64,000 nt of DNA from Armatimonadota bacterium (GCA_026392045.1 JAPLCU010000041.1:84-64083); one strand, 5' to 3'; positions 10,836-44,655 are shown, counted from the stretch's first letter. Translations and numbers: made by a program. Notes: generated by a model from the letters alone, not told the origin.

Positions 10836-10881
10836 TATAATAGTATTGAAAAGTATCCAAACAAACCATTAGAGGTGAATT

Positions 10882-11436: not shown

Positions 11437-11478
11437 TGATGTATGTCGCGCTATAGAGCTTAGAATCGGAATATCAAT

Positions 11479-12363
11479 ATGTATGAACAAATCTCGGGTA
11501 ATATCTGGCGTTCGCGTTTGCTGTTGGTGATGTTTCTGGCGATTTTGATCGGGATAGGTTACGTGTTTTCGCGAGCGTATAATGACCCGTTTATTATGCC
11601 GCTTGCTATTGTGATTGCGGTTGCAACCACCGTCGGCAGCTTCTATTACAGCGATAAGATCGTGATTGCCACTACCGGCGCCCGTGCGGTGGACAAGGAC
11701 GAGTTTCCGCATTATGTAAACTCGGTGGAAGGCATCGCCATCGCTGCAGGGCTGCCGTGCCCGCGGATTTTTGTTATAAATGACCTCGCGCCGAATGCAT
11801 TCGCAACCGGACGAGACCCTGAGCATGCCCTGATATGCGTGACTACGGGCTTGCTGGGCATGATGGACCGCACCGAGCTTGAAGGCGTGATCGGGCATGA
11901 GATGTCGCATATCGAGAATTACGATATTCGATTTATGATGCTGGTGGCGGTATTGGCGGGCTCGATTGCGCTTATGTCGGATTTCTTCTGGCGTATGAGA
12001 TGGTTCAGAAGCAGCAGCCGCGACAGCAACGGAGGCGGGCAGGCGCAGGCGATATTTATGATTATTGGGCTGGTTCTGGCAATACTCGCGCCGCTTTCGG
12101 CTGCATTGGTGCAAGCGTGGATATCTCGGCAGCGAGAATACTTAGCCGATGCCAACGGCGCTCTGTTGACGCGCTTCCCGGAAGGCCTCGCGAACGCTCT
12201 CGAACAGATCGCCGAAGATCCCAACAAGCTTCAATCCGCAAACAAAGCAACTGCGCATCTGTTCATCGCAAACCCTTTGAAAGACCACGGCGGCGCTATG
12301 AACAGCCTCTTCGACACTCACCCGCCAATTGTTGAGAGGGTAAGAAGATTGCGGGAGATGTGA
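11479..12363 (+). CDS. htpX: zinc metalloprotease HtpX (M48 family)
   Basis: HEMSH zinc motif (GHEMSHIENYD). TM segments. C-terminal FDTHPPIVERVRRLREM. Confidence 0.85.
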   Translation: MYEQISGNIWRSRLLLVMFLAILIGIGYVFSRAYNDPFIMPLAIVIAVATTVGSFYYSDKIVIATTGARAVDKDEFPHYVNSVEGIAIAAGLPCPRIFVINDLAPNAFATGRDPEHALICVTTGLLGMMDRTELEGVIGHEMSHIENYDIRFMMLVAVLAGSIALMSDFFWRMRWFRSSSRDSNGGGQAQAIFMIIGLVLAILAPLSAALVQAWISRQREYLADANGALLTRFPEGLANALEQIAEDPNKLQSANKATAHLFIANPLKDHGGAMNSLFDTHPPIVERVRRLREM

Positions 12364-12448
12364 TATAGCAAAAATTATATGTGGGAACGACTGCGACCAC
12401 TGCGCTTCCAGTTCTACGCATTCAAGATTTCTCGCAGCATCAAGAATC

Positions 12449-12961
12449 CTACTTCGCCGTGTCGTTGGCGACAGTATCCTCAAGTTCAATATAGACCTTG
12501 GACACTTCCGGGCAGACTTCTTCGGCTTTGTCAAAAAATCTGACTTCGATTTTGGGCTTACCTGAATCTTTAACGATCTTCGCGATCCAGTTCTTACCTG
12601 TCACGAGCGATAGCAGGTTCATTGCTTTACGCACAGATACTTCATCCGTAGGAACATCCAGTTTGCCGTAACGCAATATAACGTTACCTGTAAAATGACA
12701 CCCGCTGGCTTGCACCACTATGGGTAAGTCAGGCATTTGTTTCTTGACTCGATCAAAACCTACTATTTGACTAATTGCATCATCCGGTGATGAAGCAGAA
12801 ACACTTAGTCCTGTTAAGTCAGTCGTAAATGGATAAGGGAAAGATGGCTTGTTAGGTACGTAGCGAAGGAACTTGCCATTCTTATCCCGCAATTCGCTTG
12901 CTCCAGGTGTCTGGTACAGTCTTGGCACATAATTAAAGTACCCGGTCGATGCTCTCGTCAT
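12449..12961 (-). CDS. hypothetical protein (170 aa) inside the inserted segment; possibly a continuation of 12933..13241 via a frameshift
   Basis: ORF only. Overlaps the upstream ORF by 29 nt. Confidence 0.35.
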   Translation of the reverse strand: MTRASTGYFNYVPRLYQTPGASELRDKNGKFLRYVPNKPSFPYPFTTDLTGLSVSASSPDDAISQIVGFDRVKKQMPDLPIVVQASGCHFTGNVILRYGKLDVPTDEVSVRKAMNLLSLVTGKNWIAKIVKDSGKPKIEVRFFDKAEEVCPEVSKVYIELEDTVANDTAK

Positions 12962-22232: not shown

Positions 22233-22258
22233 GGCTCAGGGGGACCTTCGCCCTCCCC
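22233..22258. repeat. family-3 unit GGCTCAGGGGGACCTTCGCCCTCCCC (reverse orientation relative to 41287-41312)
   Basis: Exact reverse complement of the 26-mer at 41287-41312. Confidence 0.55.
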
Positions 22259-28652: not shown

Positions 28653-29615
28653 ATGAAACTATTTTCTAAAAGTGCTCTTCTCTTGGCGACACTGTGTGTC
28701 GCTATCCCTGTTATGCAGGGTTGTTCAAAGAATGTAAGCTCTGGGCAGCTTGTAGTTGGCTTCTCTCAGATCGGTTCTGAGAGCGACTGGCGCAGAGCTC
28801 ACACCAAGAATATTCAGGACGAAGCCCGAAAGCGCGGCATTAAACTGATGTTCTCGGATGCTCAGCAGAAGCAAGAAAACCAGATCAAGGCCATAAAGAA
28901 CTTCATCGCTCAGAAAGTGGACGTAATCATCTTGGCTCCGGTTATTACGAGTGGTTGGGAACCCGTGTTGCGCGAGGCTAAGGCCGCTAAGATTCCTGTG
29001 ATTCTTTCGGACCGTACTGTTGATGTTTCGGATGACAGCCTTTGGGTTACTCATGTTGGACCTAATCTTACCGAAGAAGGCCGAATGGCTGGCGAGTGGT
29101 TGGCTAAGAAAATGAATGGCAAAGCCAATATCGTTGAGCTTACCGGTACCGCCAGTTCCGCTCCCGCTCGTGATCGCAAAATTGGTTTCCAGAATGCTAT
29201 CAAAAATTTCCCTGGTATGAAGATCATCAAGAGCCAGACCGGTGACTTCAAGCGCGTTACCGGCCAGCAGGTTATGGAAGCATTCATCGCATCCGAAGGC
29301 AAGAATATCCAGGCTGTTTATGCGCATAATGATGATATGGCTCTCGGCGCTATCCAGGCTTTGGAAGCTGCCGGTATCAAGCCGGGCAAGGATGTTATAA
29401 TTGTCTCCATCGATGGCGTCAAAGCTGCATTTGAGGCTATGATCGCTGGCAAGCTCAATTGCAGCGTCGAGTGCAACCCACTGATGGGCCCAGCTCTATT
29501 TGATGCTTGCGAAAAGGCAGTCAAAGGCATTGCACAACCGAAGGAAATGCCATCTAAGGAACAATGCTTCGATCAGAGCGTTGCTGCAAAGCTTATCGGT
29601 TCCAGAAAGTATTAA
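28653..29615 (+). CDS. ytfQ: sugar ABC transporter periplasmic binding protein, YtfQ-like (galactofuranose-type)
   Basis: High similarity over the whole length to E. coli YtfQ (VGFSQ.GSES.WR.., IKA...F.AQ.VD.I..APV...GWEPVL.EAK.A.IPV.L.DR). Confidence 0.85.
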   Translation: MKLFSKSALLLATLCVAIPVMQGCSKNVSSGQLVVGFSQIGSESDWRRAHTKNIQDEARKRGIKLMFSDAQQKQENQIKAIKNFIAQKVDVIILAPVITSGWEPVLREAKAAKIPVILSDRTVDVSDDSLWVTHVGPNLTEEGRMAGEWLAKKMNGKANIVELTGTASSAPARDRKIGFQNAIKNFPGMKIIKSQTGDFKRVTGQQVMEAFIASEGKNIQAVYAHNDDMALGAIQALEAAGIKPGKDVIIVSIDGVKAAFEAMIAGKLNCSVECNPLMGPALFDACEKAVKGIAQPKEMPSKEQCFDQSVAAKLIGSRKY

Positions 29616-29718
29616 TTCGGCGTCTTGCCTCTGGCAAGCGATGAATTGACCACAAAATCAAAGAGAAAGATAAGGGAGTGCGACTTAATTCAGCCGCACT
29701 CCCGATCTTAGTACAATT

Positions 29719-31257
29719 ATGACAGAACAAACCAACTTAATCCTCGATATGAAGTCAATAAGCAAGACTTTCCCCGGCGTTAGGGCCCTATCCAATGTGG
29801 ATTTCTGCGTGAAACCTGGTGAGGTGCATTCTGTGATGGGCGAAAACGGCGCAGGCAAGTCTACGTTGCTCAAAATACTTACCGGAGTATATTCCCTGGA
29901 AACCGGCAAAATTGTCTTGGACGGAAAGCCTTTCAAGCCGACATCGCCTGTTGACGCACAAGCCAAAGGCATCAGCGCTATCCATCAGGAAGTTAGCCTG
30001 CTGCCGTATCAGAGTGTTGCTGAAAACATCATGATCGGTCGTCAGCCAAAGAACTTCTTCGGCGCGATACGCTGGGGTGAGCTCAATAGATTAGCCAATA
30101 TTGCTATGCAGCGTCTTGGTTTGAATATAGACGTCACCCGCTCAATCTCAGATTACCCCGTTGCTATAAGACAAATGGTGAGCATCGCGCGCGCTGTCGA
30201 TATGAAATGCAAGATTCTGGTCATGGACGAACCGACCTCAAGCCTTGATGAAGGCGAAGTCAAGGAGCTCTTTGCCGTGGTAAGGAATCTCCGAGATGAG
30301 GGTGTTGGAATTGTATTTGTTACACATTTTCTTGACCAGGTCTACCAGATCACGGACCGGATAACGGTTTTGAGAAACGGAGAGCTTGTGGGCATGTTTG
30401 AGGCCGCTCAACTGCCGAAACTGGGTCTGGTTGGTCATATGCTCGGAAAGAACCCGGATGAGGTCCAAGCGCTGTTCGTTCAAAAGGCCGAATCTGCGCA
30501 CGTGGAAGGCAGCAAACCATTTGTTGAAGCTAGAGGCTTGGGAAGAGTTGGCGCTGTTAAGCCTTTCGATTTGGAGATAAGAAGCGGAGAGGTTTTGGGT
30601 TTAGCCGGACTTCTCGGCTCAGGGCGCACAGAAGCGGCGCGGCTATTCTTCGGCGCGGATAAGCCGACCTCAGGCACGATCGCTGTTGATGGTAAGAACC
30701 TCGGCAGGCTTTCTCCGAAAGTCGCTATAGATAACGGTATTGGCTTTTCACCCGAAGACCGGCGAACCGAGGGCATTATCCCTGACCTCAGCGTTCGAGA
30801 AAACATCTGCCTTGCTATCCACAAGAAAATTTCCCCCGGCGGCTTCATATCGCTCAAAAAGCAGGTCGAAATCGCTGAAAAATACGTAAAAGCGCTCAAT
30901 ATTTCCACGCCGAGCATAGAACAGCCGGTTAAGAACCTGAGCGGCGGAAACCAGCAGAAGGTTATCTTAGCGCGGTGGTTGGCTTCGCAGCCCAAACTGC
31001 TTATTCTTGATGAACCGACAAGAGGAATCGATGTCGGCGCGAAATCTGAAGTAGAGACAGCTATGAAGGATCTTTCGAAAGATGGCATGGCGATACTTTT
31101 TATCTCATCTGAGCTTGAGGAAGTTGTCCGCTCCAGCCATCGGGTGGCTGTTATGAAGGATCGGGCAAAGATAGCCGAGCTGAGCGGAGACCAAATAGAC
31201 GAGCAGGTAATCATGAGTGTGATTGCAGGGGGAGGGCAGCATGCGCAAACAAACTAA
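29719..31257 (+). CDS. ytfR: sugar ABC transporter ATP-binding protein with two NBDs, YtfR-like
   Basis: Duplicated Walker A / ABC signature (GENGAGKST ... LSGGNQQK). Confidence 0.85.
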   Translation: MTEQTNLILDMKSISKTFPGVRALSNVDFCVKPGEVHSVMGENGAGKSTLLKILTGVYSLETGKIVLDGKPFKPTSPVDAQAKGISAIHQEVSLLPYQSVAENIMIGRQPKNFFGAIRWGELNRLANIAMQRLGLNIDVTRSISDYPVAIRQMVSIARAVDMKCKILVMDEPTSSLDEGEVKELFAVVRNLRDEGVGIVFVTHFLDQVYQITDRITVLRNGELVGMFEAAQLPKLGLVGHMLGKNPDEVQALFVQKAESAHVEGSKPFVEARGLGRVGAVKPFDLEIRSGEVLGLAGLLGSGRTEAARLFFGADKPTSGTIAVDGKNLGRLSPKVAIDNGIGFSPEDRRTEGIIPDLSVRENICLAIHKKISPGGFISLKKQVEIAEKYVKALNISTPSIEQPVKNLSGGNQQKVILARWLASQPKLLILDEPTRGIDVGAKSEVETAMKDLSKDGMAILFISSELEEVVRSSHRVAVMKDRAKIAELSGDQIDEQVIMSVIAGGGQHAQTN

Positions 31258-32344
31258 GCCGACTGCAGCGCCCCGTTTATTTTTACACAAAGAAGGACTT
31301 TATAAGGCGTTATTACCATTTGTGGCATTGCTTGTAGTAATACTAATTTGCGCATTTTCCATGCACTTCATAGTTATTAATTCTAAAGGGATTAGTGTTA
31401 AATGGGCAGCTCTACTTGATACGCTGCTTGTCATCGGAAGGCAGGCGACTCCCGTAATATTGATGGCGATGGCTATGACATTAGTTATTGCTACGAAAGG
31501 TATCGACCTTTCGGTCGGCGCTGTTGCTGCGATTTCAGGAGTAACATCGGCGGTGTTATTATTGGCGCCGAAGCCTTTACCGTTGCCCGCGATTATCATG
31601 TTTTGTCTCGGTATAGGTGTGTTGGCAGGCATTTGGAATGGTATTCTAGTAGCCTATTTGAGGATTCAGCCATTTATTGCAACCTTAATTCTTATGGTTG
31701 CGGGACGCGGAATTGCACAACTTCTGCCAACATGCAAACCTGGTGAAACAGAGGGCGCAATTCTTACTTTGCCTCTCAATAATCCGCATTCTAACCCGAT
31801 ATTTGGGCAATTCTGTGAGTTGGGCAATGGGGCGTTCTTAGGATTGCCAAACAGATTCTATCTTGTGGCATTGGTGTGTGCTGTTACGTGGTTTATTGCG
31901 CGAAAAACTGTCTGGGGCACGTATATCGAGGCTGTCGGAAGCAACGAAACCGCATCCAAGTATTGCGGTGTGAACTCATCAATGGTGAAAGTGTTTGTCT
32001 ATGCGTTCTCTGGGGTTTGTGCTGCGCTGGCGGGTTTGTTGCTAACGGCACAAGTTGCTTCTGCTGATGCGAACACGATGGCTCTCAGAGACCACAATGA
32101 GCTCGATGTTATACTCGGGGTTATTGTTGGTGGTACGGCGTTTAGCGGCGGAAAGTTTAGTCTTTTTGGCTCTCTTATGGGTGCGCTCATTATGAGGACG
32201 TTGATTTTCACAGTTCAGGCCGCTGGTTTGAACTGGGGATATGCTTTGGCGATGAGAGCGATTACCGTTGTGATTGTGTGTTTGATTCAGTCGCCGGCAT
32301 TTAGAGCGTCAGTGGCGAATATTTTTACACGTAGGAGCGCGTAG
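31241..32344 (+). CDS. ytfT: sugar ABC transporter permease, YtfT-like
   Basis: Polytopic permease. Start at 31241 is preceded by GGGGAGGG. Overlaps the ytfR end. Confidence 0.8.
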   Translation: MRKQTKPTAAPRLFLHKEGLYKALLPFVALLVVILICAFSMHFIVINSKGISVKWAALLDTLLVIGRQATPVILMAMAMTLVIATKGIDLSVGAVAAISGVTSAVLLLAPKPLPLPAIIMFCLGIGVLAGIWNGILVAYLRIQPFIATLILMVAGRGIAQLLPTCKPGETEGAILTLPLNNPHSNPIFGQFCELGNGAFLGLPNRFYLVALVCAVTWFIARKTVWGTYIEAVGSNETASKYCGVNSSMVKVFVYAFSGVCAALAGLLLTAQVASADANTMALRDHNELDVILGVIVGGTAFSGGKFSLFGSLMGALIMRTLIFTVQAAGLNWGYALAMRAITVVIVCLIQSPAFRASVANIFTRRSA

Positions 32345-32348
32345 GATT

Positions 32349-33635
32349 ATGTCGACAGTTGTTTCAAATAATACTCAAAAAATATCTGGGTTGGCGAATA
32401 AAATTTTCAACGTGCGAACCATTCCAATGCTTGCAACCATTTTTGTCTGCCTGGCGCTTTATATTGTCGCCAGAGCCACAAGCCCTAGCTTTGGCTCAGC
32501 CTATGTGTTCATAAATCTATTTGTTGATAATGCGGCGCTGGGCATTGTCGCTGTTGGAATGACAATGGTCATCGTTTCAGGCGGGATAGACCTTTCGGTG
32601 GCGGGTGTGGTCGCTCTTTGTGCATGCGTAATTGCCAAACTTATGGGCGCTTACCACCTGCATCCGGTGATTTGCTGGGTGATTGCCCTTTGTATCGGCA
32701 CGGGAATGGGTTTTCTGACGGGATGTGTGGTGCGTTATTTTAAGATAGAGCCGTTCATCGCGACATTGGCTGGGCTATTCCTCGCGCGCGGAATCGCGTA
32801 TATGATAAGCAATGAGACTGCTATTCCGATAGAGCACCCATTCATGACCAGGATGACCGAGATCGGCTTGCCGATTAAATTTGGGTTTTCAGCGGTAACT
32901 CATTTTTGCGGTTTTCGCTGGGACCCGTTATGGATAGGTTTCCCTGCGTTGGCGGTACTTGCTGTTGTAGCAATCGGCCTGTATATTACGTTATTCACAT
33001 CGCATTTTATGGGATTGCCTGTTGGGCGAACAAAAATCAGGGTTTATGCTCTCAGAGGTTTCTTAGCTGCATTAGCTGCGACAGTGTTCACTGTCTGTCT
33101 TCTCCAATTGGTTTTTCCAATTGGGTCATATTGGATTGGTTTTCGTTGGGATCCTATATGGATCGGGCTGCCCGCATTGGTTTTGCTTGCAGTTGTTGCT
33201 GTTGGGCTGTATATTACTTTCTTTACTTCGTTTGGGCGCAATCTATTCGCTGTTGGCGGCAATGAGGATGCCGCGCACTTGATGGGGCTGCCTGTTGGGC
33301 GGACCAAAGTGATGGTTTACATGCTCAGCGGATTCCTTGCCGCATTGGCTGCGATAGTGTTTACGATTTACCTGCCCTCCGGCGACCCGACCGGCGCTGA
33401 TGGCTGGGAGCTCAATGCAATTGCCGCATCAGTTATCGGAGGCACTCTGATGACCGGTGGAGCGGGTAATGTGTTTGGAACTCTTATCGGCGTTATGATT
33501 CTGGGAATTATTATGTCCAGCATGGACTTCCATAACGTGAGCTCGTATTACGCAAAAATCGTTATCGGCGTGTTGCTGTTGGTTTTTGTAGTTTTGCAGA
33601 GATTCTTGAGCGGCAGCTCGTTGCGCAAGAATTAG
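32349..33635 (+). CDS. yjfF: sugar ABC transporter permease, YjfF-like, carrying an internal diverged tandem duplication (~32911-33138 vs ~33139-33400)
   Basis: Permease motif FGRNLFAVGGNEDAAHLMG is present only in copy 2. The duplicated ~76-aa segment begins GFRWDP(L/I)WIG(F/L)PAL in both copies. Confidence 0.75.
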   Translation: MSTVVSNNTQKISGLANKIFNVRTIPMLATIFVCLALYIVARATSPSFGSAYVFINLFVDNAALGIVAVGMTMVIVSGGIDLSVAGVVALCACVIAKLMGAYHLHPVICWVIALCIGTGMGFLTGCVVRYFKIEPFIATLAGLFLARGIAYMISNETAIPIEHPFMTRMTEIGLPIKFGFSAVTHFCGFRWDPLWIGFPALAVLAVVAIGLYITLFTSHFMGLPVGRTKIRVYALRGFLAALAATVFTVCLLQLVFPIGSYWIGFRWDPIWIGLPALVLLAVVAVGLYITFFTSFGRNLFAVGGNEDAAHLMGLPVGRTKVMVYMLSGFLAALAAIVFTIYLPSGDPTGADGWELNAIAASVIGGTLMTGGAGNVFGTLIGVMILGIIMSSMDFHNVSSYYAKIVIGVLLLVFVVLQRFLSGSSLRKN

Positions 33636-33775: not shown

Positions 33776-33892
33776 AAGACTGAACTCTCTCATTGATGAT
33801 GGGCTTGAGCTCCTGAACCACTGAATAGTGTAAAATAGGTTATTCTAGAGTTGCCATTCATAAGGACGTTTGATGCTTTTAGAGAGGTATAT

Positions 33893-36610
33893 ATGGAGTT
33901 GGAGTTGGAAAACAATACTTGTTTGAATAGCGCTGAGTTTGATCTGAAGCTGGATAATGGCGCGGTTGTTGGTCTCAGGCGGGTGGAAGACTCATTCGAT
34001 ACGCAATATATCCTGCCTGGTAAGAGGCTGGGGGATGTTATCTTGCGCTATCGGCAAGGAGCTGGCGAGTGGGTGCAGACCGATACGGGTGTACTGGCAG
34101 GAAGCGGGCAATTGACCCCGATAACGTCTTGCTGCGGTTCGCAATATGGCGCTAAATATAATATTGATGATCGCTTAAATCTGGTAAGCCGATTCGACCT
34201 GCAGGGCGGCTATCTCAATTGGATAATTGCGATCAGCAACAATTCAGACCAGCCTATTGAGATCGGCGATCTGGCGCTGCCGTTTGAGATGAATACCGTG
34301 TTTGCCTGGAATAAGCCTGCGACTGAAAGCGTGTTCAAACATAGCTTTATATCCGGTTATTGCTCGTATATGTTTTGGATGAGGCCCAATAGTGTGGGGC
34401 CTTACCTTGCGATGACGACTTTCGATAATACGAAACTTGAGTTTTATGATGCGTTCAGGAGCAATACCGGCGAAGGCAGCTTCAAGGCTTATGTTCATTC
34501 CGCGGCAGAGGGCGCTATTGCCAAGGAAAAGGGCTGCAACTGGCGACAGCCCAACACCAGCCTTATTCTCGCTCCTAAGGGCTCTAATGGCGATGCTGCG
34601 ACCTATGGCTTCAAGTTCCAGTGGGCTGCGGATTATGATGCTGTGCGGCAGGTCTATGTGGATGAGGGCAAGATTGATATTCAAGTCGTCCCCGGAATGA
34701 CCATTCCCAGCAATCTCTTTGCCAAATTCTCCCTGCGGACAAAGCAGAAGATCAATTCTCTTGAGCTGGAGTTTCCTGAAGATTCTGAGATTGAATATCT
34801 GGGAACCGCAGACGAGCTTACCCAGCTTTTTCAGGTGAAATTCAAGAAGCTTGGCGAGAATCTGATTACAGTCAATTACGGCGATGGCTGTTATATGTTC
34901 CTTGAGTTCTTTGTAACGGAGCCCATTGAGACTCTTATTAAGAAGCGGGGCGCGTTTATCAAGAAATGCCGGCACAAGGACCCCAGCAAATGGTATAACG
35001 GTCTGATTTCTGAATGGAATATGGAAACTCAGGTTTTGCTTGGGCCTGATAACTACGATAAGATCAAGGGATGGCGTATTTACGAAGTTACCTGCGATGA
35101 CCCCGGGCTGTGTAAGCCGTCGTTCTTAGCTGCGAAAAATGCTGAGTATCCTGTTCAGGATGAAGTGGATGCTCTTGATTATTACATCGAGAACTTCGTC
35201 TGGGGCGGCCTTCAGCGCACTACTGAGGAAGAATACTCGTATGGCATCTACGGCATTCCTGATTGGAAAACGCTCAGGGACAGCGCAGACCCCGGTGCAA
35301 AAGGGCAGACGCATATCTGGCGGATCTATGATTATCCGCACATCGCTCTGATGTATTTCGGGATGTATAGAGTGGCCGCGCAATTCCCGAACATTAAGAC
35401 CAAACTCGACAAGATCGAGTATCTAAAGCGCGCGTATGGCACTGCAGTCGCTATGTTCACCATTCCCACAGAGACTAGAGATTGGAGCGCATATAAGACC
35501 GGCCTTTACAACGAGCTTGTGTATCTGGACATCATCGATGCGCTTGAAGCCGAGGGCATGAGCGTGCAGGCGTATCGGCTGCGCAAGCATTGGGAGAAGA
35601 AAGTCAGATACTTCGTTAATGATAACCCGAGCATGTTCGGTTCGGAGTATCCGTTTGATTCTACGGGTTTCGAGAGCACTCACGCGTTTGCCAAGTATGC
35701 AAAAGCTCATGCAGTTGTGCCGGATACTGAAGAAGGCAACAAGAAGGACATCATATTGCCTGAAGCGGCTGATAAGTTCATGGAGATGCAGACAGCGTGC
35801 AACATCTTCTGCCGCGGTTGGCTGGAGCCTTCGTATTTTCTGCTTGGGAGCGATTATCGAGGCTGCGGCAACACTGCTTACCTTTTGAGTTACATGGCGC
35901 AGATGGGCGGGTGGTCACTATTGGATTACGCTTTGTATCACACTGCTGACCCGTTCCCATATCTGCGGCTGGCTTATGCTTCATATCTCAGCTCCTGGGC
36001 TTTGATGAATTCGGGAACTCCCGAATCTAACTATGGTTACTGGTACCCCGGCGCTGAAAACGATGGCGGGGCAGGGGGCGGCTTTGAGCCTGCGCCTTAT
36101 TGCCATACATGGCTCGAGCAGCCATGTTCACGCGGTTCATGGTACTATTCGTGCGAGATCGATCTTGGTTTCAGCGGCGCATTAAGGGCTGCTGCGACCG
36201 TGCTTGCGGATGACCCGCTCTTTGGCATGTTCTGTTATGGCGGAGACTTTGAAAAGATAATTGGCGGCATCAATATCCATCCTAAAGATGGCTTGCGGAG
36301 ACGTTTCCACGCTGTGATGGCAAATCAACGTCTTCATATAGAATTGGCGAGCGATCACTTTGATTCTGAAGCTCCGATCTATCTAGCCGATAATTTCTCT
36401 GAGATCAGGTTTTGCATTGAGAACGAAGGCGGCCATTCACATGAAACAAAATTGCGGCTTTCGGGTATGAAAGCAGGGAAATACGTTGTCTGTGTGGAAG
36501 AAAGTACTAAGGAATGTTATAATGTAACAGATCAAGGCGATCTGCAAATCTCTTTGCCATTAGCAAGCAAAAAACAAGTCGCTTGCGTTGCAATCAAAAG
36601 GGCTATCTAA
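33893..36610 (+). CDS. large hypothetical cytoplasmic protein (905 aa) with no signal peptide and no recognised domain
   Basis: GAGAGG SD 5 nt before the ATG at 33893. Long uninterrupted ORF with normal codon usage. Lower GC than the flanks. Confidence 0.65.
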   Translation: MELELENNTCLNSAEFDLKLDNGAVVGLRRVEDSFDTQYILPGKRLGDVILRYRQGAGEWVQTDTGVLAGSGQLTPITSCCGSQYGAKYNIDDRLNLVSRFDLQGGYLNWIIAISNNSDQPIEIGDLALPFEMNTVFAWNKPATESVFKHSFISGYCSYMFWMRPNSVGPYLAMTTFDNTKLEFYDAFRSNTGEGSFKAYVHSAAEGAIAKEKGCNWRQPNTSLILAPKGSNGDAATYGFKFQWAADYDAVRQVYVDEGKIDIQVVPGMTIPSNLFAKFSLRTKQKINSLELEFPEDSEIEYLGTADELTQLFQVKFKKLGENLITVNYGDGCYMFLEFFVTEPIETLIKKRGAFIKKCRHKDPSKWYNGLISEWNMETQVLLGPDNYDKIKGWRIYEVTCDDPGLCKPSFLAAKNAEYPVQDEVDALDYYIENFVWGGLQRTTEEEYSYGIYGIPDWKTLRDSADPGAKGQTHIWRIYDYPHIALMYFGMYRVAAQFPNIKTKLDKIEYLKRAYGTAVAMFTIPTETRDWSAYKTGLYNELVYLDIIDALEAEGMSVQAYRLRKHWEKKVRYFVNDNPSMFGSEYPFDSTGFESTHAFAKYAKAHAVVPDTEEGNKKDIILPEAADKFMEMQTACNIFCRGWLEPSYFLLGSDYRGCGNTAYLLSYMAQMGGWSLLDYALYHTADPFPYLRLAYASYLSSWALMNSGTPESNYGYWYPGAENDGGAGGGFEPAPYCHTWLEQPCSRGSWYYSCEIDLGFSGALRAAATVLADDPLFGMFCYGGDFEKIIGGINIHPKDGLRRRFHAVMANQRLHIELASDHFDSEAPIYLADNFSEIRFCIENEGGHSHETKLRLSGMKAGKYVVCVEESTKECYNVTDQGDLQISLPLASKKQVACVAIKRAI

Positions 36611-36722: not shown

Positions 36723-37400
36723 ATGTCGAAAGTAAAAATGAAACGTGGATTTTCTTTGATTGAGCTGTTGGTGGTCATTGGAATTATAGCCATTTTGGCT
36801 GCGATACTTTTTCCAATGCTCACCAAAACTCGTGAGAAAAGCAAGCAAGTCAAGTGCATGAATAATGCGGCTCAGATGGGCAAGGGCTTCAAGATGTACG
36901 GCCAAGATTGGGACAACAAGTTTCCCATCAGCGCAGAGGTCAATAACGGTAAGGGCCAGTGCTTGCTCTACGATGACCTGAAAAAATACATATCCAACAA
37001 TTACAACCTGTTTATATGTCCAGCTGATACAGGCGATGCTTTGATCGGTTTGAGTAGTGCGCCCTACTGGAAGGGATATTTTGGATCAAGTTGGGCGTGG
37101 CCTAATGCTTATTCAGGTGGAAAATGGGTTTGTGGTTTCTCTCAGGATAATCCGCGGCCGTCATCCGGAACTTACAACTGGGCTCAACTTATGCCTTTAA
37201 CTAGACGCCCTGTAGTATTCGATCATCGCCCGTGGCATTGGGGTGTGAAAGGGCAGACCGTAGGTGATTGGGGTAACATCTCAGGAAAATGTAGTGTTCT
37301 CTGGTGCGATGGGCATGTGGGTATGTGTGGATACAAAACGATGTTAGCAATTATGGAGGCGGGAGGCAGCACCACTATGCCAACTGGACTTGAGTGGTAG
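36723..37400 (+). CDS. prepilin-type N-terminal cleavage/methylation domain protein of the DUF1559/H-X9-DG class
   Basis: N-terminal KRGFSLIELLVVIGIIAILAAILFP. C-terminal ...SVLWCDGHVG. AGGAGG RBS. Confidence 0.8.
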   Translation: MSKVKMKRGFSLIELLVVIGIIAILAAILFPMLTKTREKSKQVKCMNNAAQMGKGFKMYGQDWDNKFPISAEVNNGKGQCLLYDDLKKYISNNYNLFICPADTGDALIGLSSAPYWKGYFGSSWAWPNAYSGGKWVCGFSQDNPRPSSGTYNWAQLMPLTRRPVVFDHRPWHWGVKGQTVGDWGNISGKCSVLWCDGHVGMCGYKTMLAIMEAGGSTTMPTGLEW

Positions 37401-37431
37401 TTGTTGATAGTGTAAGCTGAATAGGTAATAA

Positions 37432-37478
37432 AAAGCTGCACCATGGTTTAGTGATTCTTGGTGCAGCTTATTTATTTC
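37432..37478. terminator. bidirectional rho-independent terminator between convergent genes
   Basis: AAAGCTGCACCA-15 nt-TGGTGCAGCTT flanked by A-rich and T-rich runs. Confidence 0.65.
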
Positions 37479-37496
37479 AATACAATCGAATATTCA

Positions 37497-38417
37497 TTAC
37501 GCGCTGGCTGATATCGGCGATGGTGTCTCATCGTCAGATTCAGGCATGGTCGGTTTGCCAGGCTTACCAGAGCCCAAACGCCAAATGATAAGATAGATCA
37601 GGCTGCCTATTCCAATTAGGCCAAGTCCGACCCATCCGCTTTGCCAGTTCCACAAGAACGGGATTTTTGCTGGCCACCATTTTTCCTTCAGAAACTCGAT
37701 GTTTTGCAGCAGAATCGACATGCGGGTCATAATCGTATTGCCGAAAAATCCACCGAATAGGATCATCAATAACCATCGGCCAACTTCAGCAGTTCTCTTC
37801 ACCACAGGATTTGAGTGGTCGAATGAGAACAAGAAATACACCATTACCGTTATTACACCAACAAGAAAAATGATGTTGCTAATGGATTGCCAAAAGTCGA
37901 ATGGCACACCGCCACCCAGAAATGGCTGCCCATTAGGCCAGATTGCAGAATGCGCCCCAGAGATGAGCGGTCTGGCTGAGTCTATGATTTGAGGCACATT
38001 TGGCAGCAATTGCTGCTTGAAAATGATGCCTCCATTGGCGCCGACGGTGATGCCAATAACGATTCTTGAAAGCCACATATACTTTCTGCTGGTTTGGAAA
38101 TACCAGAGAGATCCCAAAAGCCCCAAAGACAAGAACAGGATAAACGTTCCAGGGTTATCCACGACGCACCGTATAAAAGAACCAATCCAACTGCTGCTTT
38201 TGTAGTTTGGAATTAGTCCGCAGAACTTATCCCACCACAGCGGCCCCAGAACCTGTTTCCACGTTACGATAAGAGTATATCCCGTTCCAATGCCGATGCA
38301 GGTATTGAGCACAATTCTATAGATCTTGTTGTCATTATACAGGAACGAATATATCGATAGAACAATAACTACGCTTATCCATGCCTGAAGGAGTAGTTTC
38401 ATCGATTCATCAATCAT
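37497..38417 (-). CDS. polytopic integral membrane protein (unknown function)
   Basis: Multiple TM helices. Start ATG (MIDESMK) overlaps the upstream stop (ATGATTGA). ~40% GC. Confidence 0.6.
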   Translation of the reverse strand: MIDESMKLLLQAWISVVIVLSIYSFLYNDNKIYRIVLNTCIGIGTGYTLIVTWKQVLGPLWWDKFCGLIPNYKSSSWIGSFIRCVVDNPGTFILFLSLGLLGSLWYFQTSRKYMWLSRIVIGITVGANGGIIFKQQLLPNVPQIIDSARPLISGAHSAIWPNGQPFLGGGVPFDFWQSISNIIFLVGVITVMVYFLFSFDHSNPVVKRTAEVGRWLLMILFGGFFGNTIMTRMSILLQNIEFLKEKWWPAKIPFLWNWQSGWVGLGLIGIGSLIYLIIWRLGSGKPGKPTMPESDDETPSPISASA

Positions 38418-39276
38418 TGTTGGCCTTCTTTCGTTTAGCGGCAAAATAACCAATATTGCCGAGCACAATAGCAAAAATAATGACTAAGTGCCCGTATGCC
38501 AAAGGTAGGATAAGTTTGGAACCATAGTTTTTGCGGTCTGTAATACTATTCGGGTGCAGCAATTTATCATACTCTGCCCCACCGCGAGCTCCGACCAAGA
38601 ACCCTGCAACCTGCCCGGACGGCATATATCTGTATATCGTAGTTGAGCTGATTCCGCCGCCGCCAAACACCAATTTGGTGCCATAGACCTCATGTATAAA
38701 TCCAATGTAGTCTTCAGATGGCCAGTAGTTTGTGCTGGTTAAGAGCCCAACATCATTAATGTTATTAAGATTCTTCGTGATGGGAATATCTGTGGTATAA
38801 TGTCCTTTTACGTCTTTTTCGAACTGTTTCTTAAAGTCTTTGGCAAATAGTTGCATAGCGAACGCGCCACCCTTGGTGATGCCCAGATTGACCCAGTCAA
38901 CACCATACTCTATATCTTTGAACTCTGGATGGCTCGCAATTAACTTTTTAATAATATCGTCAGTGTAGCTGGGAGCCAACGCATCGCCATCCAGAGCAAA
39001 AACCACGAACTTCTGCCTGTTTCGCAGAAGATGCTCGAAAAGGGCTTCTGTTTGTCCTTTGTTTTCACCCACAGAGCCAGGTCCCCAAGGACTGTCAACA
39101 AGCACAATCTTGTCTTTCGGAACGCTTTGCACGGCGTCATAGTAAGCCTGCGTTTCAGGCGAAACATAGACGTCAATGTCAACAGGCCGAATGAACGGTA
39201 TTGTACAGGCAATGGCGACGAAGAGATAAATCCATCTTCTGTCCATTGTCTGGAGTCTTGCGAGAAAATCTAACAT
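38410..39276 (-). CDS. bitopic membrane protein: N-terminal TM, ~220-aa soluble domain, C-terminal TM
   Basis: Hydropathy pattern only. No recognisable motif. Confidence 0.55.
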   Translation of the reverse strand: MLDFLARLQTMDRRWIYLFVAIACTIPFIRPVDIDVYVSPETQAYYDAVQSVPKDKIVLVDSPWGPGSVGENKGQTEALFEHLLRNRQKFVVFALDGDALAPSYTDDIIKKLIASHPEFKDIEYGVDWVNLGITKGGAFAMQLFAKDFKKQFEKDVKGHYTTDIPITKNLNNINDVGLLTSTNYWPSEDYIGFIHEVYGTKLVFGGGGISSTTIYRYMPSGQVAGFLVGARGGAEYDKLLHPNSITDRKNYGSKLILPLAYGHLVIIFAIVLGNIGYFAAKRKKANND

Positions 39277-39278
39277 AG

Positions 39279-40385
39279 TTATAACTCCCTATCAAAGAAT
39301 GCGCCACGCTCAAGCGAGAGCCAGTAGCGCAGACCAATTGCCATAGATGCCAACATAATTCCAAACCACATGCCGCGTTGTGAAGCTGTGTTCAAAACAA
39401 GCTGAAGCCATCTGCTTATAGCAGGCACCAAACCTGTTTGTCCAGGAATCCAACTTGTCAAATATACTCCAAATGGAATCTGTCCAAGCATAACAATCAG
39501 CGCCGAGACCATCATCAACACCGCTTCGCGAGATTTCGCTTTGAATGAGCGATATGCCGCAGAGGCCAGATAAAATGACAGAAGCGAGAATGTGGCGGAA
39601 TAGAATGCAAACTGAATATATTGGGCAACTGTATCATTCAGCAGAAGAAGAATCTTGTGGTAGTTGGTGTCAGGTTCGGCTCCATACCCAATGCCGGCAA
39701 ATATTCCAAATACAAGCCCTGCAAAGAAAAGCACACTCATATACCATTCTTTGGTTTTCTTGCGAATGGCGGATGAGTGCATTATCCAAAGACTGAACAA
39801 TGCAAAACCCCAAGCCATCGTCGCCAACACGATTAGACCGTTACTAACATCAGTCAATATGCTGGAAACGTAGGTTGTCGGCCCAATCTGAGATACAAGA
39901 TCGCCGACTAGTAAACTGCCCGGATCATCAATCTGGCTTTCCCCACCGGAGTTCTCCATCCTGAATGAAACAGTTTTCGATTTACCATTTTCCACTTTGG
40001 CGTTGATGGTCTTTGTTCCGCCGAGAATCCCAATGGTCAGCTCAGCTTTGTTTTTTCTGCAGATAATGCCTCTCTCAGAATTGTCCATTGCAATAATGCT
40101 TGTAGTTGAAAGCTCAATATCTGATGTGGCGATTCTCTTTGTTTGATCGCCTTTGATCCAATCAACCATCAGTTTGTCTGTGACAGGCATTTTGACAGTG
40201 CGTTTGAATGTTGTAAGTTCTAGCATAACATCACTGGCCATGGTATCCATATCAGTAATAGAGACAACTGACGTGACGATACCGGACGTGCCCTGTCCAG
40301 GCATAATTGGAGGCACTGCAAACTCCAAGAAGTAGTAGAGCCCAGCCACAAACGTAACTATTAAAATGAGTTTCTTTTTCCACAT
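39279..40385 (-). CDS. membrane protein with one N-terminal TM, a ~190-aa extracytoplasmic domain and five C-terminal TMs (ABC-2-permease-like topology)
   Basis: Topology inferred from hydrophobic segments. 2-nt gap to the downstream gene. Confidence 0.55.
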   Translation of the reverse strand: MWKKKLILIVTFVAGLYYFLEFAVPPIMPGQGTSGIVTSVVSITDMDTMASDVMLELTTFKRTVKMPVTDKLMVDWIKGDQTKRIATSDIELSTTSIIAMDNSERGIICRKNKAELTIGILGGTKTINAKVENGKSKTVSFRMENSGGESQIDDPGSLLVGDLVSQIGPTTYVSSILTDVSNGLIVLATMAWGFALFSLWIMHSSAIRKKTKEWYMSVLFFAGLVFGIFAGIGYGAEPDTNYHKILLLLNDTVAQYIQFAFYSATFSLLSFYLASAAYRSFKAKSREAVLMMVSALIVMLGQIPFGVYLTSWIPGQTGLVPAISRWLQLVLNTASQRGMWFGIMLASMAIGLRYWLSLERGAFFDREL

Positions 40386-40390
40386 GGTTG

Positions 40391-41167
40391 CTACTTCCCA
40401 AATATATTGTAGAGTATGGCCAGACCGGATGTCGAACCAAACGTCACAAGTAATGTTCCAGCTATGATGACCAGAAGAATAGCTATCTTGCAGTAGTCTT
40501 GGCCCACAATGCTGCCAAGCATCGTAGGTTCTCGCGTCAGGTAAGCGCCTGCGGCGTATAATTCTTCACCAATAACGGTATAATCGCAGGTTGCGATGAA
40601 GAATGGTATCTGATTCGGTTCTGCGCATCCCGCTATTTGAACAGCGCCTACATGTTGTCCTGGTTCGGTATAAAGCAGCGCCGTAAAGTCGTAGGAGCCG
40701 AAATAGAAGTGGGAAGCCGTTTTTTCGTCTTTCATTATCTGGGCAGAAGCCAGAGCAGTTTGGTCGCCTTGAGCCGCGAGAAATCGAATGTCCTTTGCAT
40801 CAAACAGCTCAGGACGCCCCTCAGCAGCGTATGCTCCTTTTACAACGTCCTCTGCAACAGGTATAACGACAGGAACACATGTGAATACAATAACACGGGC
40901 TCCCATCTTTGCGGCGGTTTGAGCTACATGGCCTAGAACTCCGATAGCCGCAAGGGTCGGCGCCGCAGTAAAGTCAGCATTGCCCGTGTTGAATAGCATC
41001 GGGCGCCCCATTTCGGTTGCTCGACCTACAGCCTCGTCAATCTCCTTCAGACCGGCAATTCGGCGGATATATATCTCCTTGCCGGATCGTGCTGAAAAGA
41101 TTTTGTAGAGGATGATGGCCGCGATCGCCATGATAATTATGAAGATTTGTGAGTTTGCGTGTTGCAT
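40391..41167 (-). CDS. membrane-anchored protein (N- and C-terminal TM, central soluble domain)
   Basis: ORF with hydrophobic termini. 5-nt gap to the next gene. Confidence 0.55.
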   Translation of the reverse strand: MQHANSQIFIIIMAIAAIILYKIFSARSGKEIYIRRIAGLKEIDEAVGRATEMGRPMLFNTGNADFTAAPTLAAIGVLGHVAQTAAKMGARVIVFTCVPVVIPVAEDVVKGAYAAEGRPELFDAKDIRFLAAQGDQTALASAQIMKDEKTASHFYFGSYDFTALLYTEPGQHVGAVQIAGCAEPNQIPFFIATCDYTVIGEELYAAGAYLTREPTMLGSIVGQDYCKIAILLVIIAGTLLVTFGSTSGLAILYNIFGK

Positions 41168-41286: not shown

Positions 41287-41358
41287 GGGGAGGGCGAAGG
41301 TCCCCCTGAGCCGTTTTCCTTCGCAGCTACAAGGCTCGGCGGGAGCCTCGCCCTCCCC
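41287..41358. repeat. family-3 inverted pair (GGGGAGGGCGAAGGTCCCCCTGAGCC ... GGCTCGGCGGGAGCCTCGCCCTCCCC) forming a long hairpin in the 192-bp gap inside a co-directional gene string
   Basis: Two inverted copies of the 26-mer separated by 20 nt. A third copy is at 22233-22258. Confidence 0.6.
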
Positions 41359-41359
41359 G

Positions 41360-42481
41360 TTATTGTGCAATGATCTCCACGTTTGCGCGTGGAACGATGA
41401 CATCCTGTCCGTCAGCCAGTTTAGCTTCAAGAACCCTGACAGTTGAACCCGACGGCACCACAACCGGCTCAGGAGGCAGACCTGTCACAGTGCCGAGTTG
41501 ACCAAAATAAGGCTCGCGTATGCATCGAATGTTTGCGCCGATATCAAGATATTGCACAGGGTCAGCAACTTCATCATCCGACACGGCAATATCCAACGGC
41601 ACAATAATCTCTGGTCGAATAACACCTGCTCTGATCTGAGTTGCGCCGTTGATTGAAGCGCGCTTTCCCTCAAGACTCTTGAGCAGATTGAATGTCCTAT
41701 CGGCCATTCTGATAGACCCGAATCCCTCAGTAATAATAAGGGAAGTGCAAATATCTTCCTGACCGGTAATCGCTACGCCGATGTCATATCCGAGGAAGTC
41801 GATAAGCTCGCGGTCGATGATAGCGCCTGCCACAACACCCGCCGCCTTGACTGAAATAGCCTTTTTGAGCGCTGCGCCGGATACGTTTGAGCCGCCGACA
41901 ATGACTTTTCCTTCCATAGAAGCATCGATCATAGAATCGGTAAGCGGCTGATCCGGTCCAGAGACCAGAATTGCGATTTCGCCGATCTGTTCTCCGCCTA
42001 CTCCAAAGATTCCCTGGATCATTGCAGCCTCAGTCTCAACAACTACGCCTTCGTCAGGTATAACCTCAGAGACTTTGCCGCGCACATATCCTTTAACCTC
42101 GATAGGTGTCGAGGGAAGACGTATGCCGATATTGCCCGTCGTGTCTGAAATGAGCTCGATTGTGCCGTTGATCGGTGATTTGACCTCGTTGCGCATGAGC
42201 CCAAAGAATGACTTTGTCTCGGCAATTATCTGACTGGCAGTAACAACATCACCCACACCGACTCTAAGCGCATTATGAAGACCAGCGGAGTCAACACCCA
42301 AAATCTGGGCCGCTCTTACGGTTTGCATAACTCCCGGAATCTGTGTGTGTGCAACAACGGTATCCGGCTCCACCATATCACCGCTATTAACGAGCACTTG
42401 CCCCTTGAGCGGCAATCGTCTGAACTTTCTAACGAGTGTTCTGGGGCTGACTTTGAGCCCTGGTGTATAAGCAGTTCCCAT
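41360..42481 (-). CDS. hypothetical soluble protein (373 aa), translationally coupled to the upstream MutL-like ATPase
   Basis: ATG is 2 nt after the upstream TAA, with GGTGGGAGG inside the upstream gene end. No family recognised by eye. Confidence 0.65.
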   Translation of the reverse strand: MGTAYTPGLKVSPRTLVRKFRRLPLKGQVLVNSGDMVEPDTVVAHTQIPGVMQTVRAAQILGVDSAGLHNALRVGVGDVVTASQIIAETKSFFGLMRNEVKSPINGTIELISDTTGNIGIRLPSTPIEVKGYVRGKVSEVIPDEGVVVETEAAMIQGIFGVGGEQIGEIAILVSGPDQPLTDSMIDASMEGKVIVGGSNVSGAALKKAISVKAAGVVAGAIIDRELIDFLGYDIGVAITGQEDICTSLIITEGFGSIRMADRTFNLLKSLEGKRASINGATQIRAGVIRPEIIVPLDIAVSDDEVADPVQYLDIGANIRCIREPYFGQLGTVTGLPPEPVVVPSGSTVRVLEAKLADGQDVIVPRANVEIIAQ

Positions 42482-42483
42482 AA

Positions 42484-44268
42484 TTAGCCTCCCACCTCTA
42501 GTCCAAGCGAGCTATGCCACTCCTGGAGTTTTGAAATTCTGAGTTTCTTATCAGTTGGAAGTTGCATCGGCCTTCCGCGTGTGTCAATCATCAGACCGAC
42601 CGTGCCGCCCTCAACTTTGGCAGTAACCGGCTTGCCTTTGCCCGCGCCCATATCAAAGTTTCTTCCCGGCCTGATAGTGACCTCTTTGGTCTCGCCAAGA
42701 CCCAGCGGAATCACAGTCAGCGTGCCGCATTTGAATGCCTGATCGCTGCCGTCGATTGTGATTGTGCAGGCAGCGTCTCCAGCCTTGCCATTTCCAACAG
42801 GCGCGATAACATGCCCAAACTTGATCAAGCAGTCTCGTTCAAAGACTTGCGCGGCGGCTTCAGGGTGAACAACCGATAGCACGCCGAGCTGAGGCATCAT
42901 GAAGATAGAGTCCTTAGCCAGCATCGTGATGCCCTCAGGCTGATACGCATCCATCATCATATACGCTGTCTCTGCGGCTCTCGGAGCGTGAGATAATACA
43001 CCGCCGCTTCCGATAATCATGTCCAGGTTCATCATCTTAACCAGAGTCTGGCCGGTTTCGGACTGATCCATAATCTCGCCGATGGTTCTTACTTGTTGAA
43101 CGCCCTTTAACGATCTTGCAAGTGACTTATGATGATCGAAAGCAAGCCTCAAAGCCTCGCGAGAGACAGCCTGCTCAATTCGTAGATCATCCAGCGTATG
43201 CGGGATCGTAGTTGGGCGGATCATCTTGTTCCTGAGCCTGTTTCTGAGGTCTGTTTCGTCTGAATCGAATGGCACCCATCGCTGAATATTGGCAATACCC
43301 GCTTCGGTGAGCACGTTGCAGATCGAGTAGCTCATACCGAGATTTGCGCTGACCGTTCTTGTGAAAGTGCCGTCAAAGACTGAGAAAACGTCGGTCGTTG
43401 CGCCGCCGATATCAACTGCCAGCACATTCATACTGAACTGTGCGGCAATCGTCTCGATGATTCTGCCGACCGCATTTGGGGTAGACATAATCCCCGAATC
43501 GGTCCATGAAGAAAGCTTTCCGTAACCCGGAGCCTGCTGCATGACGTGTTGGAGGAAAAGCTCATGGATCGCCGCTCTTGCCGGGCCGAGGTTTTCGGCC
43601 TCAAGGGAAGGCCGAAGGTTATCGACAACTTTCAGGTCGACCTTCTCCTTGAGAATATCCATGAACGGCTTGCGCGCTTCCTTGTTGCCTGCGAAGATGA
43701 CGGGTAATTTCATACCCAGGCCGAGCCTCGGTTTCGGGTCTGCCGCCAAAAGCATTTCGGCAATTTCAGCAAGATGCTTGACGGTGCCGCCATCCGTGCC
43801 GCCTGATGTCAGGATCATATCCGGGCGCAGTTCTCGGATTCGGCGGACTTTCTCATAATCTTTACGTCCATCATCAACGGCAATAACGTCAATAATGATA
43901 GCTCCAGCGCCTAGAGCGGCCCTTTGCGCACTTTCGGCGCTCATTGATTTTACAACGCCAGCCACCGTCATCTGCAATCCGCCGCCGGCGCTTGAAGTCG
44001 ACAGATATAGATCAACACCTGTCTTTTCTCCGCTCGCTGGACGCATGATCAAACCGCCATCGTCAATAATCTTTCTTCCGGACAGTTCCTCGATTTCTCT
44101 AACGGCATTCAAGACGCCCACGGTAACATCATCGAATGGAGCTTCAACAGTAGTTGGAGCTTCACCGCGTACAGATAAGCGATATTCGCCGTCGATTTTT
44201 TCTATGAGGATAGCCTTGGTGGTAGTACTTCCGCAATCGGTTGCAAGTATAATATTTATCTCTGCCAA
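42484..44268 (-). CDS. glutamate mutase subunit L (MutL/GlmL)-like ASKHA-fold ATPase with a ~130-aa C-terminal extension
   Basis: N-terminal ILATDCGSTTTKAIL phosphate-1 motif characteristic of GlmL-like actin-fold ATPases. No adjacent mutS/mutE. Confidence 0.7.
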   Translation of the reverse strand: MAEINIILATDCGSTTTKAILIEKIDGEYRLSVRGEAPTTVEAPFDDVTVGVLNAVREIEELSGRKIIDDGGLIMRPASGEKTGVDLYLSTSSAGGGLQMTVAGVVKSMSAESAQRAALGAGAIIIDVIAVDDGRKDYEKVRRIRELRPDMILTSGGTDGGTVKHLAEIAEMLLAADPKPRLGLGMKLPVIFAGNKEARKPFMDILKEKVDLKVVDNLRPSLEAENLGPARAAIHELFLQHVMQQAPGYGKLSSWTDSGIMSTPNAVGRIIETIAAQFSMNVLAVDIGGATTDVFSVFDGTFTRTVSANLGMSYSICNVLTEAGIANIQRWVPFDSDETDLRNRLRNKMIRPTTIPHTLDDLRIEQAVSREALRLAFDHHKSLARSLKGVQQVRTIGEIMDQSETGQTLVKMMNLDMIIGSGGVLSHAPRAAETAYMMMDAYQPEGITMLAKDSIFMMPQLGVLSVVHPEAAAQVFERDCLIKFGHVIAPVGNGKAGDAACTITIDGSDQAFKCGTLTVIPLGLGETKEVTIRPGRNFDMGAGKGKPVTAKVEGGTVGLMIDTRGRPMQLPTDKKLRISKLQEWHSSLGLEVGG

Positions 44269-44655
44269 TCCACATCACCATTTTTGTGGAGCCATAATCA
44301 GCCCCACCACTATGTAAAGATATTAGCTCAAAAAGAGCTGTGTCAGATATGTAATTATGTTCAGCCTATATTCTACATCATAGAAGCGCTTTGATGCTAG
44401 ACATTTTTTTGCGAAGTTTCAATCTGAGCTCAGAAAATGTATGGTTCAAGAAGCAGATTTGACAGCCGCAATTTACTTATTAGGTTTTTGCAGGGCCAAT
44501 TCCTCTTTTTGGAAAGAGTAAAGTTATTTTGATGCGAGATTCGGCAAATCCAGTCACTCACCGAAAGTGTCCTCTTACCTCTTACATCCTCCCTTCCAAC
44601 TCCACCCTTGGATATGATACAATGCAATGTCAAATTGAGAGCATAGGTGATATAA

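Follow-up and report, generated by a model that had tools for sequence, protein, structure and literature searches.

Among described protein families, two come closest to the gene set reported here: DUF6754 (PF20539), a catalogue entry for which neither a function nor a structure was found, and the GlmL/MutL family (PF13941), whose described members include the accessory protein of the coenzyme-B12-dependent glutamate mutase and the related Or-4, from ornithine degradation. Cytoplasmic proteins with an actin fold are also known to dock on membrane assemblies, as PilM does with PilN/O and as GspL and FtsA do, and in the energy-coupling factor (ECF) transporters, the phosphotransferase system (PTS) and TonB-ExbBD a shared energising module serves several specific membrane modules. 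Our literature searches found no paper on DUF6754, on PF13941 or on the system considered here. Members of both families are encoded close together in a stretch of 64,000 nucleotides from a metagenome-assembled genome of an Armatimonadota bacterium (GCA_026392045.1, JAPLCU010000041.1:84-64083; hereafter the window, meaning the whole stretch that was analysed), where six genes, for which we coined the labels M, H, A, B, C and D, follow one another on the minus strand between a probable promoter region, shared with a divergent gene, and a terminator-like hairpin.

M (positions 42484-44268) encodes a GlmL/MutL-family ASKHA ATPase of 594 amino acids, and H (41360-42481) its soluble partner of 373 amino acids. 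They are followed by A (40391-41167), which encodes a DUF6754 protein of 258 amino acids, by B (39279-40385), encoding a polytopic membrane protein of 368 amino acids, by C (38410-39276), encoding a protein of 288 amino acids with one transmembrane (TM) segment at either end, and by D (37497-38417), encoding a second polytopic membrane protein, of 306 amino acids when counted from its ATG. The intergenic gaps measure 2 (M/H), 192 (H/A), 5 (A/B) and 2 nucleotides (B/C), and at the C/D junction the genes overlap by 8 nucleotides, the ATG of D lying inside the end of C (ATGATTGA). For D, a TTG at 38474 is an improbable start, as the orthologues align from the ATG. Topologies of all six proteins were read from hydropathy, and the orientations of A and C from the distribution of charges. 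A preliminary description of this DNA, made from the sequence alone, had recognized four co-directional, tightly coupled membrane-protein genes of unknown function; this stands, and the topologies that it gave for D, C, B and A agree with our hydropathy profiles. Remote homology searches add the placement of A in DUF6754, and returned nothing credible for B, C and D in Pfam or the Protein Data Bank (PDB).

On the evidence of gene structure, family membership, topology, conservation and recurrent linkage, which the analysis does show, we propose that A-B-C-D is the membrane core of a widespread, undescribed inner-membrane system served by M-H, a proposal to which we give roughly an even chance.

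Gene Order and Linkage across Phyla

A scan with the DUF6754 alignment, restricted to one genome per species, returned at least 551 loci, the best 80 of which were used as the A-centred set; these derive from Armatimonadota, WOR-3, Eisenbacteria, Zixibacteria, Poribacteria, Planctomycetota, Ignavibacteria, Stahlbacteria, Edwardsbacteria, BRC1 and Cloacimonadota. Families were placed in the loci by tblastn, and the neighbouring open reading frames were clustered into families. A separate set of H-centred metagenome loci was also mapped. Phylum names given below for linked loci are the labels carried by the loci.

The order A-B-C-D on a single strand is kept in 61 of the 66 loci with room for all four genes, and the loci that conserve it span at least ten phyla. 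Because order and strand are kept in so many phyla, and because the genes of the window overlap or lie 2-5 nucleotides apart, ABCD is best regarded as one unit. Clustering of the neighbours identified only eight recurrent families around A, namely A, B, C, D, M, H and two small proteins with hydrophobic segments, which we term s1 (about 150 amino acids, with a TM hairpin) and s2 (about 105 amino acids); neither s1 nor s2 has a credible Pfam match. The window holds six of the eight families (M, H, A, B, C and D), and no s1 or s2 gene is present within its 64 kb, although the two may be encoded in another part of the genome.

M and H were found together in 8 of the 43 A-centred loci having at least 8 kb on both sides, where about 0.2 would be expected if, as in our own estimate, the genes were scattered at random over a genome of some 4 Mb. 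Close linkage of M-H and ABCD occurs in loci labelled Planctomycetota, Zixibacteria, Ignavibacteria, Eisenbacteria, BRC1 and Armatimonadota, and takes several forms. Full clusters of the order s1-s2-M-H-A-B-C-D are found in L031, L066 (Eisenbacteria), L077 (BRC1), L079, L080 (Planctomycetota), L120, L157 and L166; ABCD precedes M-H in L021, L034 and L140; and M is divergent in L071 and L073. A close relative of the window (L168, with an A protein 91% identical) retains M-H-A-B-C-D. The link between the membrane genes and the ASKHA ATPase, suggested as a possibility in the preliminary description from this one locus, is thus seen to recur in several arrangements and several phyla.

The two small proteins bridge the M-H and ABCD halves. 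In 28 of 72 loci the s2 gene is immediately next to A, and the codons of the two frequently overlap; s1-s2 lies directly upstream of A where M-H sits elsewhere; s1-s2 also abuts M, both in the full clusters and in loci without ABCD (L128, L136 and L159). An s2-ABCD cluster is found in the complete genome of Fervidibacter sacchari PD1, a cultured member of the Armatimonadota (L048).

ABCD behaves as a repeatable module. Three tandem ABCD sets follow a single M-H pair in L032, L035 and L060, and two sets follow one pair in L047, L154 and L166. The occurrence of several sets after one M-H pair suggests interchangeable modules on a common cytoplasmic engine, as does the fact that the periplasmic faces of the membrane proteins vary by lineage and their cytoplasmic motifs are fixed. 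L058 is also among the loci with repeated A-B-C-D sets.

Several observations weigh against the view that ABCD is served by M-H. Most Armatimonadota loci hold s1-s2-ABCD and M-H at separate places, and only 5 of the 42 H-centred metagenome loci have A in the 2.5 kb that follow H. Some H genes stand without M, and homologues of H number at least 8000 compared with 6121 for A, so that M-H may also work without ABCD. Moreover, the characterized relatives of M are regarded as accessory proteins of enzymes and not as membrane motors. Much the same evidence can be read to mean that ABCD is self-sufficient, either as a secondary transporter driven by the proton motive force (PMF) or as an envelope set, and that M-H, a cytoplasmic pair of enzyme or chaperone character, often lies next to it without being related to it in function. 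Besides the lack of linkage in most Armatimonadota and most H-centred loci and the apparently larger size of the H family, this reading is favoured by the Poribacteria loci, in which ABCD stands by itself and none of s1, s2, M and H is encoded less than 10 kb away. We nevertheless regard it as doubtful: the linkage recurs in different arrangements in at least five labelled phyla, far above random; s1-s2 attaches to either half; and one M-H pair precedes two or three ABCD sets.

The Putative ATPase M and Its Partner H

M, the putative ATPase of the system proposed here, matches Pfam MutL (PF13941) from end to end (E = 2e-124) but scores below all three of the NCBIfam cut-offs for GlmL, the methylaspartate mutase accessory protein (NF040745 / TIGR01319), with 224.6 against 475 for GlmL, 205.3 against 600 for Or-4 and 168.7 against 204.05 for the GlmL-family model. 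By these profile scores it belongs to PF13941 at the broad Pfam level and falls outside the glutamate-mutase accessory proteins. It also carries a C-terminal extension of about 115 amino acids, which is common to all aligned orthologues and has no credible Pfam match. In thirteen orthologues, drawn from several phyla, identity to the M of the window ranges from 56 to 76%, and M looks catalytically active, because the phosphate and adenosine motifs of the ASKHA fold (DCGSTTTK, DIGGATTD and GSGG) are invariant.

Clustering of the neighbours in about 160 loci showed no recurrent B12-dependent mutase family beside M; the recurrent neighbours are H, s1, s2 and A-D, to which one lineage adds a two-component system. 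In 16 loci (among them L095, L105, L116 and L125) M is missing next to H, and the genes immediately after H encode a response regulator of the OmpR type and a histidine kinase.

In 33 of 51 related loci M immediately precedes H, and H is 43-52% identical across phyla. Neither protein has a hydrophobic segment by hydropathy. In an AlphaFold2 model of H (pLDDT 86), beta barrel-sandwich-like domains at the N-terminus are accompanied by an alpha/beta domain and, at the C-terminus, by a KOW/SH3-like barrel; the matches that Foldseek found for this model cover single domains only (KOW, sandwich-barrel hybrid and biotin-carrier-like). Pfam gave only sub-threshold matches of the N-terminus of H to RnfC_N, NqrA_N and biotin-lipoyl domains (E 0.002-0.04), the scores being 18.7 against 25.6 for RnfC_N and 14.7 against 25 for NQRA_N. 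Attachment of biotin or lipoyl is not expected, since the lysine at the hairpin position is not conserved. When profiles of all six proteins were searched against PDB sequences, no match had an E value below 0.09, and so no PDB relative of either M or H was found. In L110, L114, L126 and L144 M-H pairs occur in tandem, in the order s1-M-H'-s2-M-H, with H' detected in two pieces.

The Membrane Proteins A, B, C and D

A belongs clearly to DUF6754 (276.4 bits against a cut-off of 27, E = 2e-82, model positions 10-252 of 257), is the only one of the four membrane proteins with a Pfam family, and is 100% identical to an NCBI entry with the locus tag NT018_05680. Its homologues numbered 6121, and the alignment has 42 invariant positions; invariant motifs near the membrane are RRIxGLxxIDEAVGRATEMGRP and CDY...GQDxxK. 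Hydropathy places TM segments at residues 8-24 and 228-244, around a soluble domain, and the AlphaFold2 model (pLDDT 70.5) has a Rossmann-like alpha/beta domain between two TM helices; Foldseek matched this model to generic Rossmann folds only (TM-score about 0.3). The conserved domain is predicted to be cytoplasmic, with both termini outside, because positive charges follow the first TM segment. Independent support for this topology comes from an orthologue in L082 with a PKD-domain extension after the C-terminal TM segment, and further support from orthologues in L056, L060 and L075 with signal-anchored N-terminal extensions.

The L082 protein (10016-12571 of that locus) is a DUF6754 protein of 851 amino acids, the PKD domains lying in its long C-terminal extension, and the N-terminal extensions in L056, L060 and L075, all, like L082, from the Fibrobacterota-Chlorobiota-Bacteroidota (FCB) group, are 90-150 amino acids long. 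A motif D-x-P-N-D-x-G...W is common to the A orthologues of L020, L056 and L060. A connection to B12 through A was considered and rejected: with no invariant histidine, A has no place for a conserved DxHxxG B12-binding motif, and mutase genes are not among the recurrent neighbours.

B has one plus five TM segments with a loop of about 150 amino acids after the first. An alignment of 28 orthologues reduces it to a core of about 210-230 amino acids with the conserved motifs AAYRAFRxR and LxxER; the periplasmic loop (approximately residues 30-170) is absent from most orthologues and represents a lineage-specific insertion. In C, TM segments at residues 16-32 and 255-271 enclose an extracytoplasmic domain of about 220 amino acids, and the distribution of charges puts both termini inside the cell; its orthologues share the motif GQLxGLLGGxKGAAEYE. 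D has 6-7 hydrophobic segments, with a core of about six TM segments. Its additional C-terminal TM segment and tail (residues 248-306) are lineage-specific and missing in most orthologues, and the motifs YFFFSxEHKG and FGYTVMAR stand out as conserved when 27 orthologues are aligned. The D orthologues of L048 (12422-13669), L028 and L043, of 362-415 amino acids, have an insertion of about 150-170 amino acids between the conserved halves; the one in L048 has no Pfam match.

Scans of all six proteins with Pfam, NCBIfam and PADLOC gave matches for M and A only, with none to the PADLOC defence-system models at E <= 0.1, and Pfam searches with 27-28 orthologues each of B, C and D revealed no recurrent family. 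A and C share the layout of an alpha/beta domain between two TM segments, in opposite orientation, and comparison of their profiles with hhalign gave a weak, in-register match just past the first TM segment (probability 14%, E = 0.002); the two may be very distant paralogues, although this is suggestive at most. The corresponding profile comparison of B and D found no homology. In L001 (11804-13297), on a contig of 5.4 Mb, C and D appear fused into a protein of 497 amino acids. This is a probable assembly frameshift, since the middle looks out of frame and the related L007 has separate genes.

A Model for the System

If A-D is indeed the membrane core of a system served by M-H, the four proteins would assemble as one inner-membrane complex, with B and D as its polytopic core. 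C would contribute an alpha/beta domain in the periplasm and A its highly conserved Rossmann-like domain in the cytoplasm, and M together with H would dock on the cytoplasmic face of the complex and contact A. The geometry is compatible with such docking, M and H having no TM segments and the conserved domain of A being placed in the cytoplasm. Binding or hydrolysis of ATP by M-H might then drive or gate translocation or an envelope-directed process, and the ABCD sets could be exchangeable, perhaps substrate-specific, modules sharing one M-H pair. Candidate outputs would be the transport of solutes, the movement of macromolecules or lipids, or an envelope-directed mechanical task.

That M-H, s1, s2 and A-B-C-D constitute an unrecognized class of ATP-driven membrane machine is put forward tentatively, as one possibility and not the favoured one. 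The same caution applies to the idea that interchangeable four-subunit modules are powered by a GlmL-type actin-fold ATPase instead of an ABC (ATP-binding cassette), P-type, AAA+ or PMF motor, and no more than a tentative suggestion is made that what it powers is a transport or envelope process in Armatimonadota, the FCB group, Planctomycetota and several candidate phyla.

M might alternatively be the core of a structural, cytoskeleton-like or scaffolding system anchored by ABCD, s1 and s2, with a role in morphogenesis and not in transport. The actin fold of M would suit such a role; the identities of M (56-76%) and H across phyla suggest many constrained surfaces; and the lineage-specific periplasmic additions (the PKD tail and N-terminal extensions of A, the loop of B and the insertion of D) are of a kind seen in envelope-spanning machines. 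However, in a review of the actin superfamily glutamate mutase is counted with the non-polymerizing members (PMC5597319), and tandem paralogous ABCD sets are better explained by interchangeable functional modules, and we consider a morphogenetic scaffold improbable.

Transcription Signals and Flanking Genes

The 387 bp upstream of M (44269-44655), which separate it from the divergent YchF gene, contain two pairs of sigma-70-like hexamers on the minus strand (44422-44394 and 44346-44317); these are consensus matches only, and the region probably holds the promoter of the operon. At the other end, a terminator-like hairpin with a U tract (37428-37469) follows about 28 nucleotides past the stop codon of D. 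It has an 11-bp stem followed by UUUUUAUU, and the 76-nucleotide stretch that includes it folds at -21.3 kcal/mol (z = -4.6).

The 192-bp gap between H and A, in which the preliminary description had noticed a palindromic pair, does contain an inverted repeat, with 26-nucleotide arms at 41287-41312 and 41333-41358 that are 85% complementary. The resulting hairpin (41287-41358) begins 1 nucleotide past the stop codon of H and folds at -50.3 kcal/mol (z = -5.5), with no U tract after it. It looks like a member of a REP-like (repetitive extragenic palindromic) repeat family in this genome. The arm GGGGAGGGCGAAGG recurs at 22245-22258, about 19 kb away, with four matches in all compared with 0.36 expected. 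The close relative L168 has a different hairpin in the same position after H. A hexamer scan found no sigma-70-like promoter in the H-A gap, and Rfam gave no match in the window or in seven full-cluster loci. The simplest reading would be a single M-H-A-B-C-D operon with an internal stabilizing or attenuating hairpin, which probably sets different levels for the soluble and the membrane halves.

The four annotated genes flanking the operon encode a DUF5695 protein, an N-methyl protein, YchF and PfkB. The first two converge on the D end of the operon: the DUF5695 gene (33851-36610, plus strand; 919 amino acids) lies upstream of the gene for the N-methyl protein (36723-37400, plus strand), which has 225 amino acids and a prepilin-type N-terminal methylation motif. 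N-methyl proteins of a similar kind flank ABCD in L169. Further away, at 28653-33635 on the plus strand, lies a sugar-type ABC importer, comprising a Peripla_BP_4 binding protein, a duplicated ABC ATPase of 512 amino acids and two BPD_transp_2 permeases, which is self-contained and unrelated to A-D.

Base Composition

The preliminary description suggested that the four membrane genes are an acquired module, citing a drop in GC content from about 55-58% in M-H to about 38-40%. A drop downstream of M-H is real, in that 37497-41167 belongs to the lowest 4% of windows of equal size, but its extent was overstated: the computed values are 46.2% for 37497-41167 and 51.6% for 41360-44268, a modest difference of 5.4 points. 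By gene, the GC content is 49.7% for A, 44.6% for B, 45.0% for C, 45.9% for D, 50.8% for H and 52.1% for M, and the genes of the window have a mean of 49.7% with a standard deviation (SD) of 3.1. The dip lies mostly at the first codon position (GC1 of 0.44-0.58 against 0.58-0.62), a difference that reflects amino-acid composition. At the third position the values for A-D (0.47-0.53) are within about 1.3 SD of that of the window (0.535, SD 0.053), and the distances of A-D in relative synonymous codon usage rank 19, 25, 33 and 39 among 41 genes.

Insertion of a horizontally acquired, low-GC membrane module downstream of M-H, for which the composition and the REP-like palindrome at the junction could be cited, therefore has very little left to recommend it: third-position GC and codon usage are ordinary, no tRNA gene is present in the window, no mobility gene is found among the four annotated flanking genes, no homologue of A or H occurs in 72,556 plasmids, and the order M-H-A-B-C-D is found in the close relative and in other phyla. 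There is no case for a recent acquisition of A-D.

That A-D is a standard ABC-2 type exporter whose ATPase gene sits elsewhere is barely credible as far as sequence tools go: B, called ABC-2-permease-like in the preliminary description, is small and polytopic, with one plus five TM segments by hydropathy and a large first loop, and an ABC ATPase gene does lie about 6 kb away (29719-31257), but the window B has no ABC-2 match in Pfam, its 28 orthologues produced a single noise match (E = 0.033), most of them lack the loop, no ABC ATPase recurs near ABCD in the 80 loci, and the ATPase nearby, the nearest to an operon that, as had been noted, has none of its own, is that of the sugar importer on the plus strand.

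Implications

The gene set occurs in thousands of genomes, mostly of uncultivated phyla (among them Armatimonadota, Zixibacteria, Eisenbacteria, Poribacteria, WOR-3, Planctomycetota and BRC1), and five of the six proteins of the operon have no usable annotation. If an actin-fold ATPase does energize a membrane module, this would be a new energy-coupling principle for membrane processes, and would give the poorly understood GlmL family a second, non-enzymatic role. Fervidibacter sacchari PD1 is a cultured carrier, which makes the hypothesis directly testable. Even with a mundane function, defining the eight families would supply annotation for a large block of genes now listed as conserved hypothetical.

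Comparison with Known Systems

With the GlmL/MutL accessory protein of glutamate mutase and with the related Or-4 protein, M shares PF13941 and the ASKHA nucleotide-binding motifs; it departs from them in its sub-cut-off NCBIfam scores, its extra C-terminal region and its lack of recurrent mutase neighbours. With ABC-2 type exporters B has in common its small, polytopic form and the one-plus-five TM pattern given by hydropathy; it matches none of their families, has no nucleotide-binding partner, and its loop is not conserved. The N-terminus of H, modelled as barrel-sandwich-like, weakly matches the N-terminal barrel-sandwich domain of NqrA and RnfC, with all scores below the curated cut-offs, and A-D lack the matches to Rnf or Nqr families in Pfam that parts of an Rnf or Na+-NQR complex would be expected to give.

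Two further likenesses concern organization and are offered as analogies. M belongs to the GlmL/hydantoinase-like branch of the ASKHA proteins, and none of its membrane partners, apart from A with DUF6754, has a credible Pfam match; what the locus would have in common with these is a soluble ASKHA-fold protein encoded together with bitopic and polytopic membrane partners. Similarly, although no sequence or fold relationship to the ECF transporters, the PTS or TonB-ExbBD was detected, the arrangement of one M-H pair before two or three paralogous ABCD sets may parallel their use of one energising module for several specific membrane modules.

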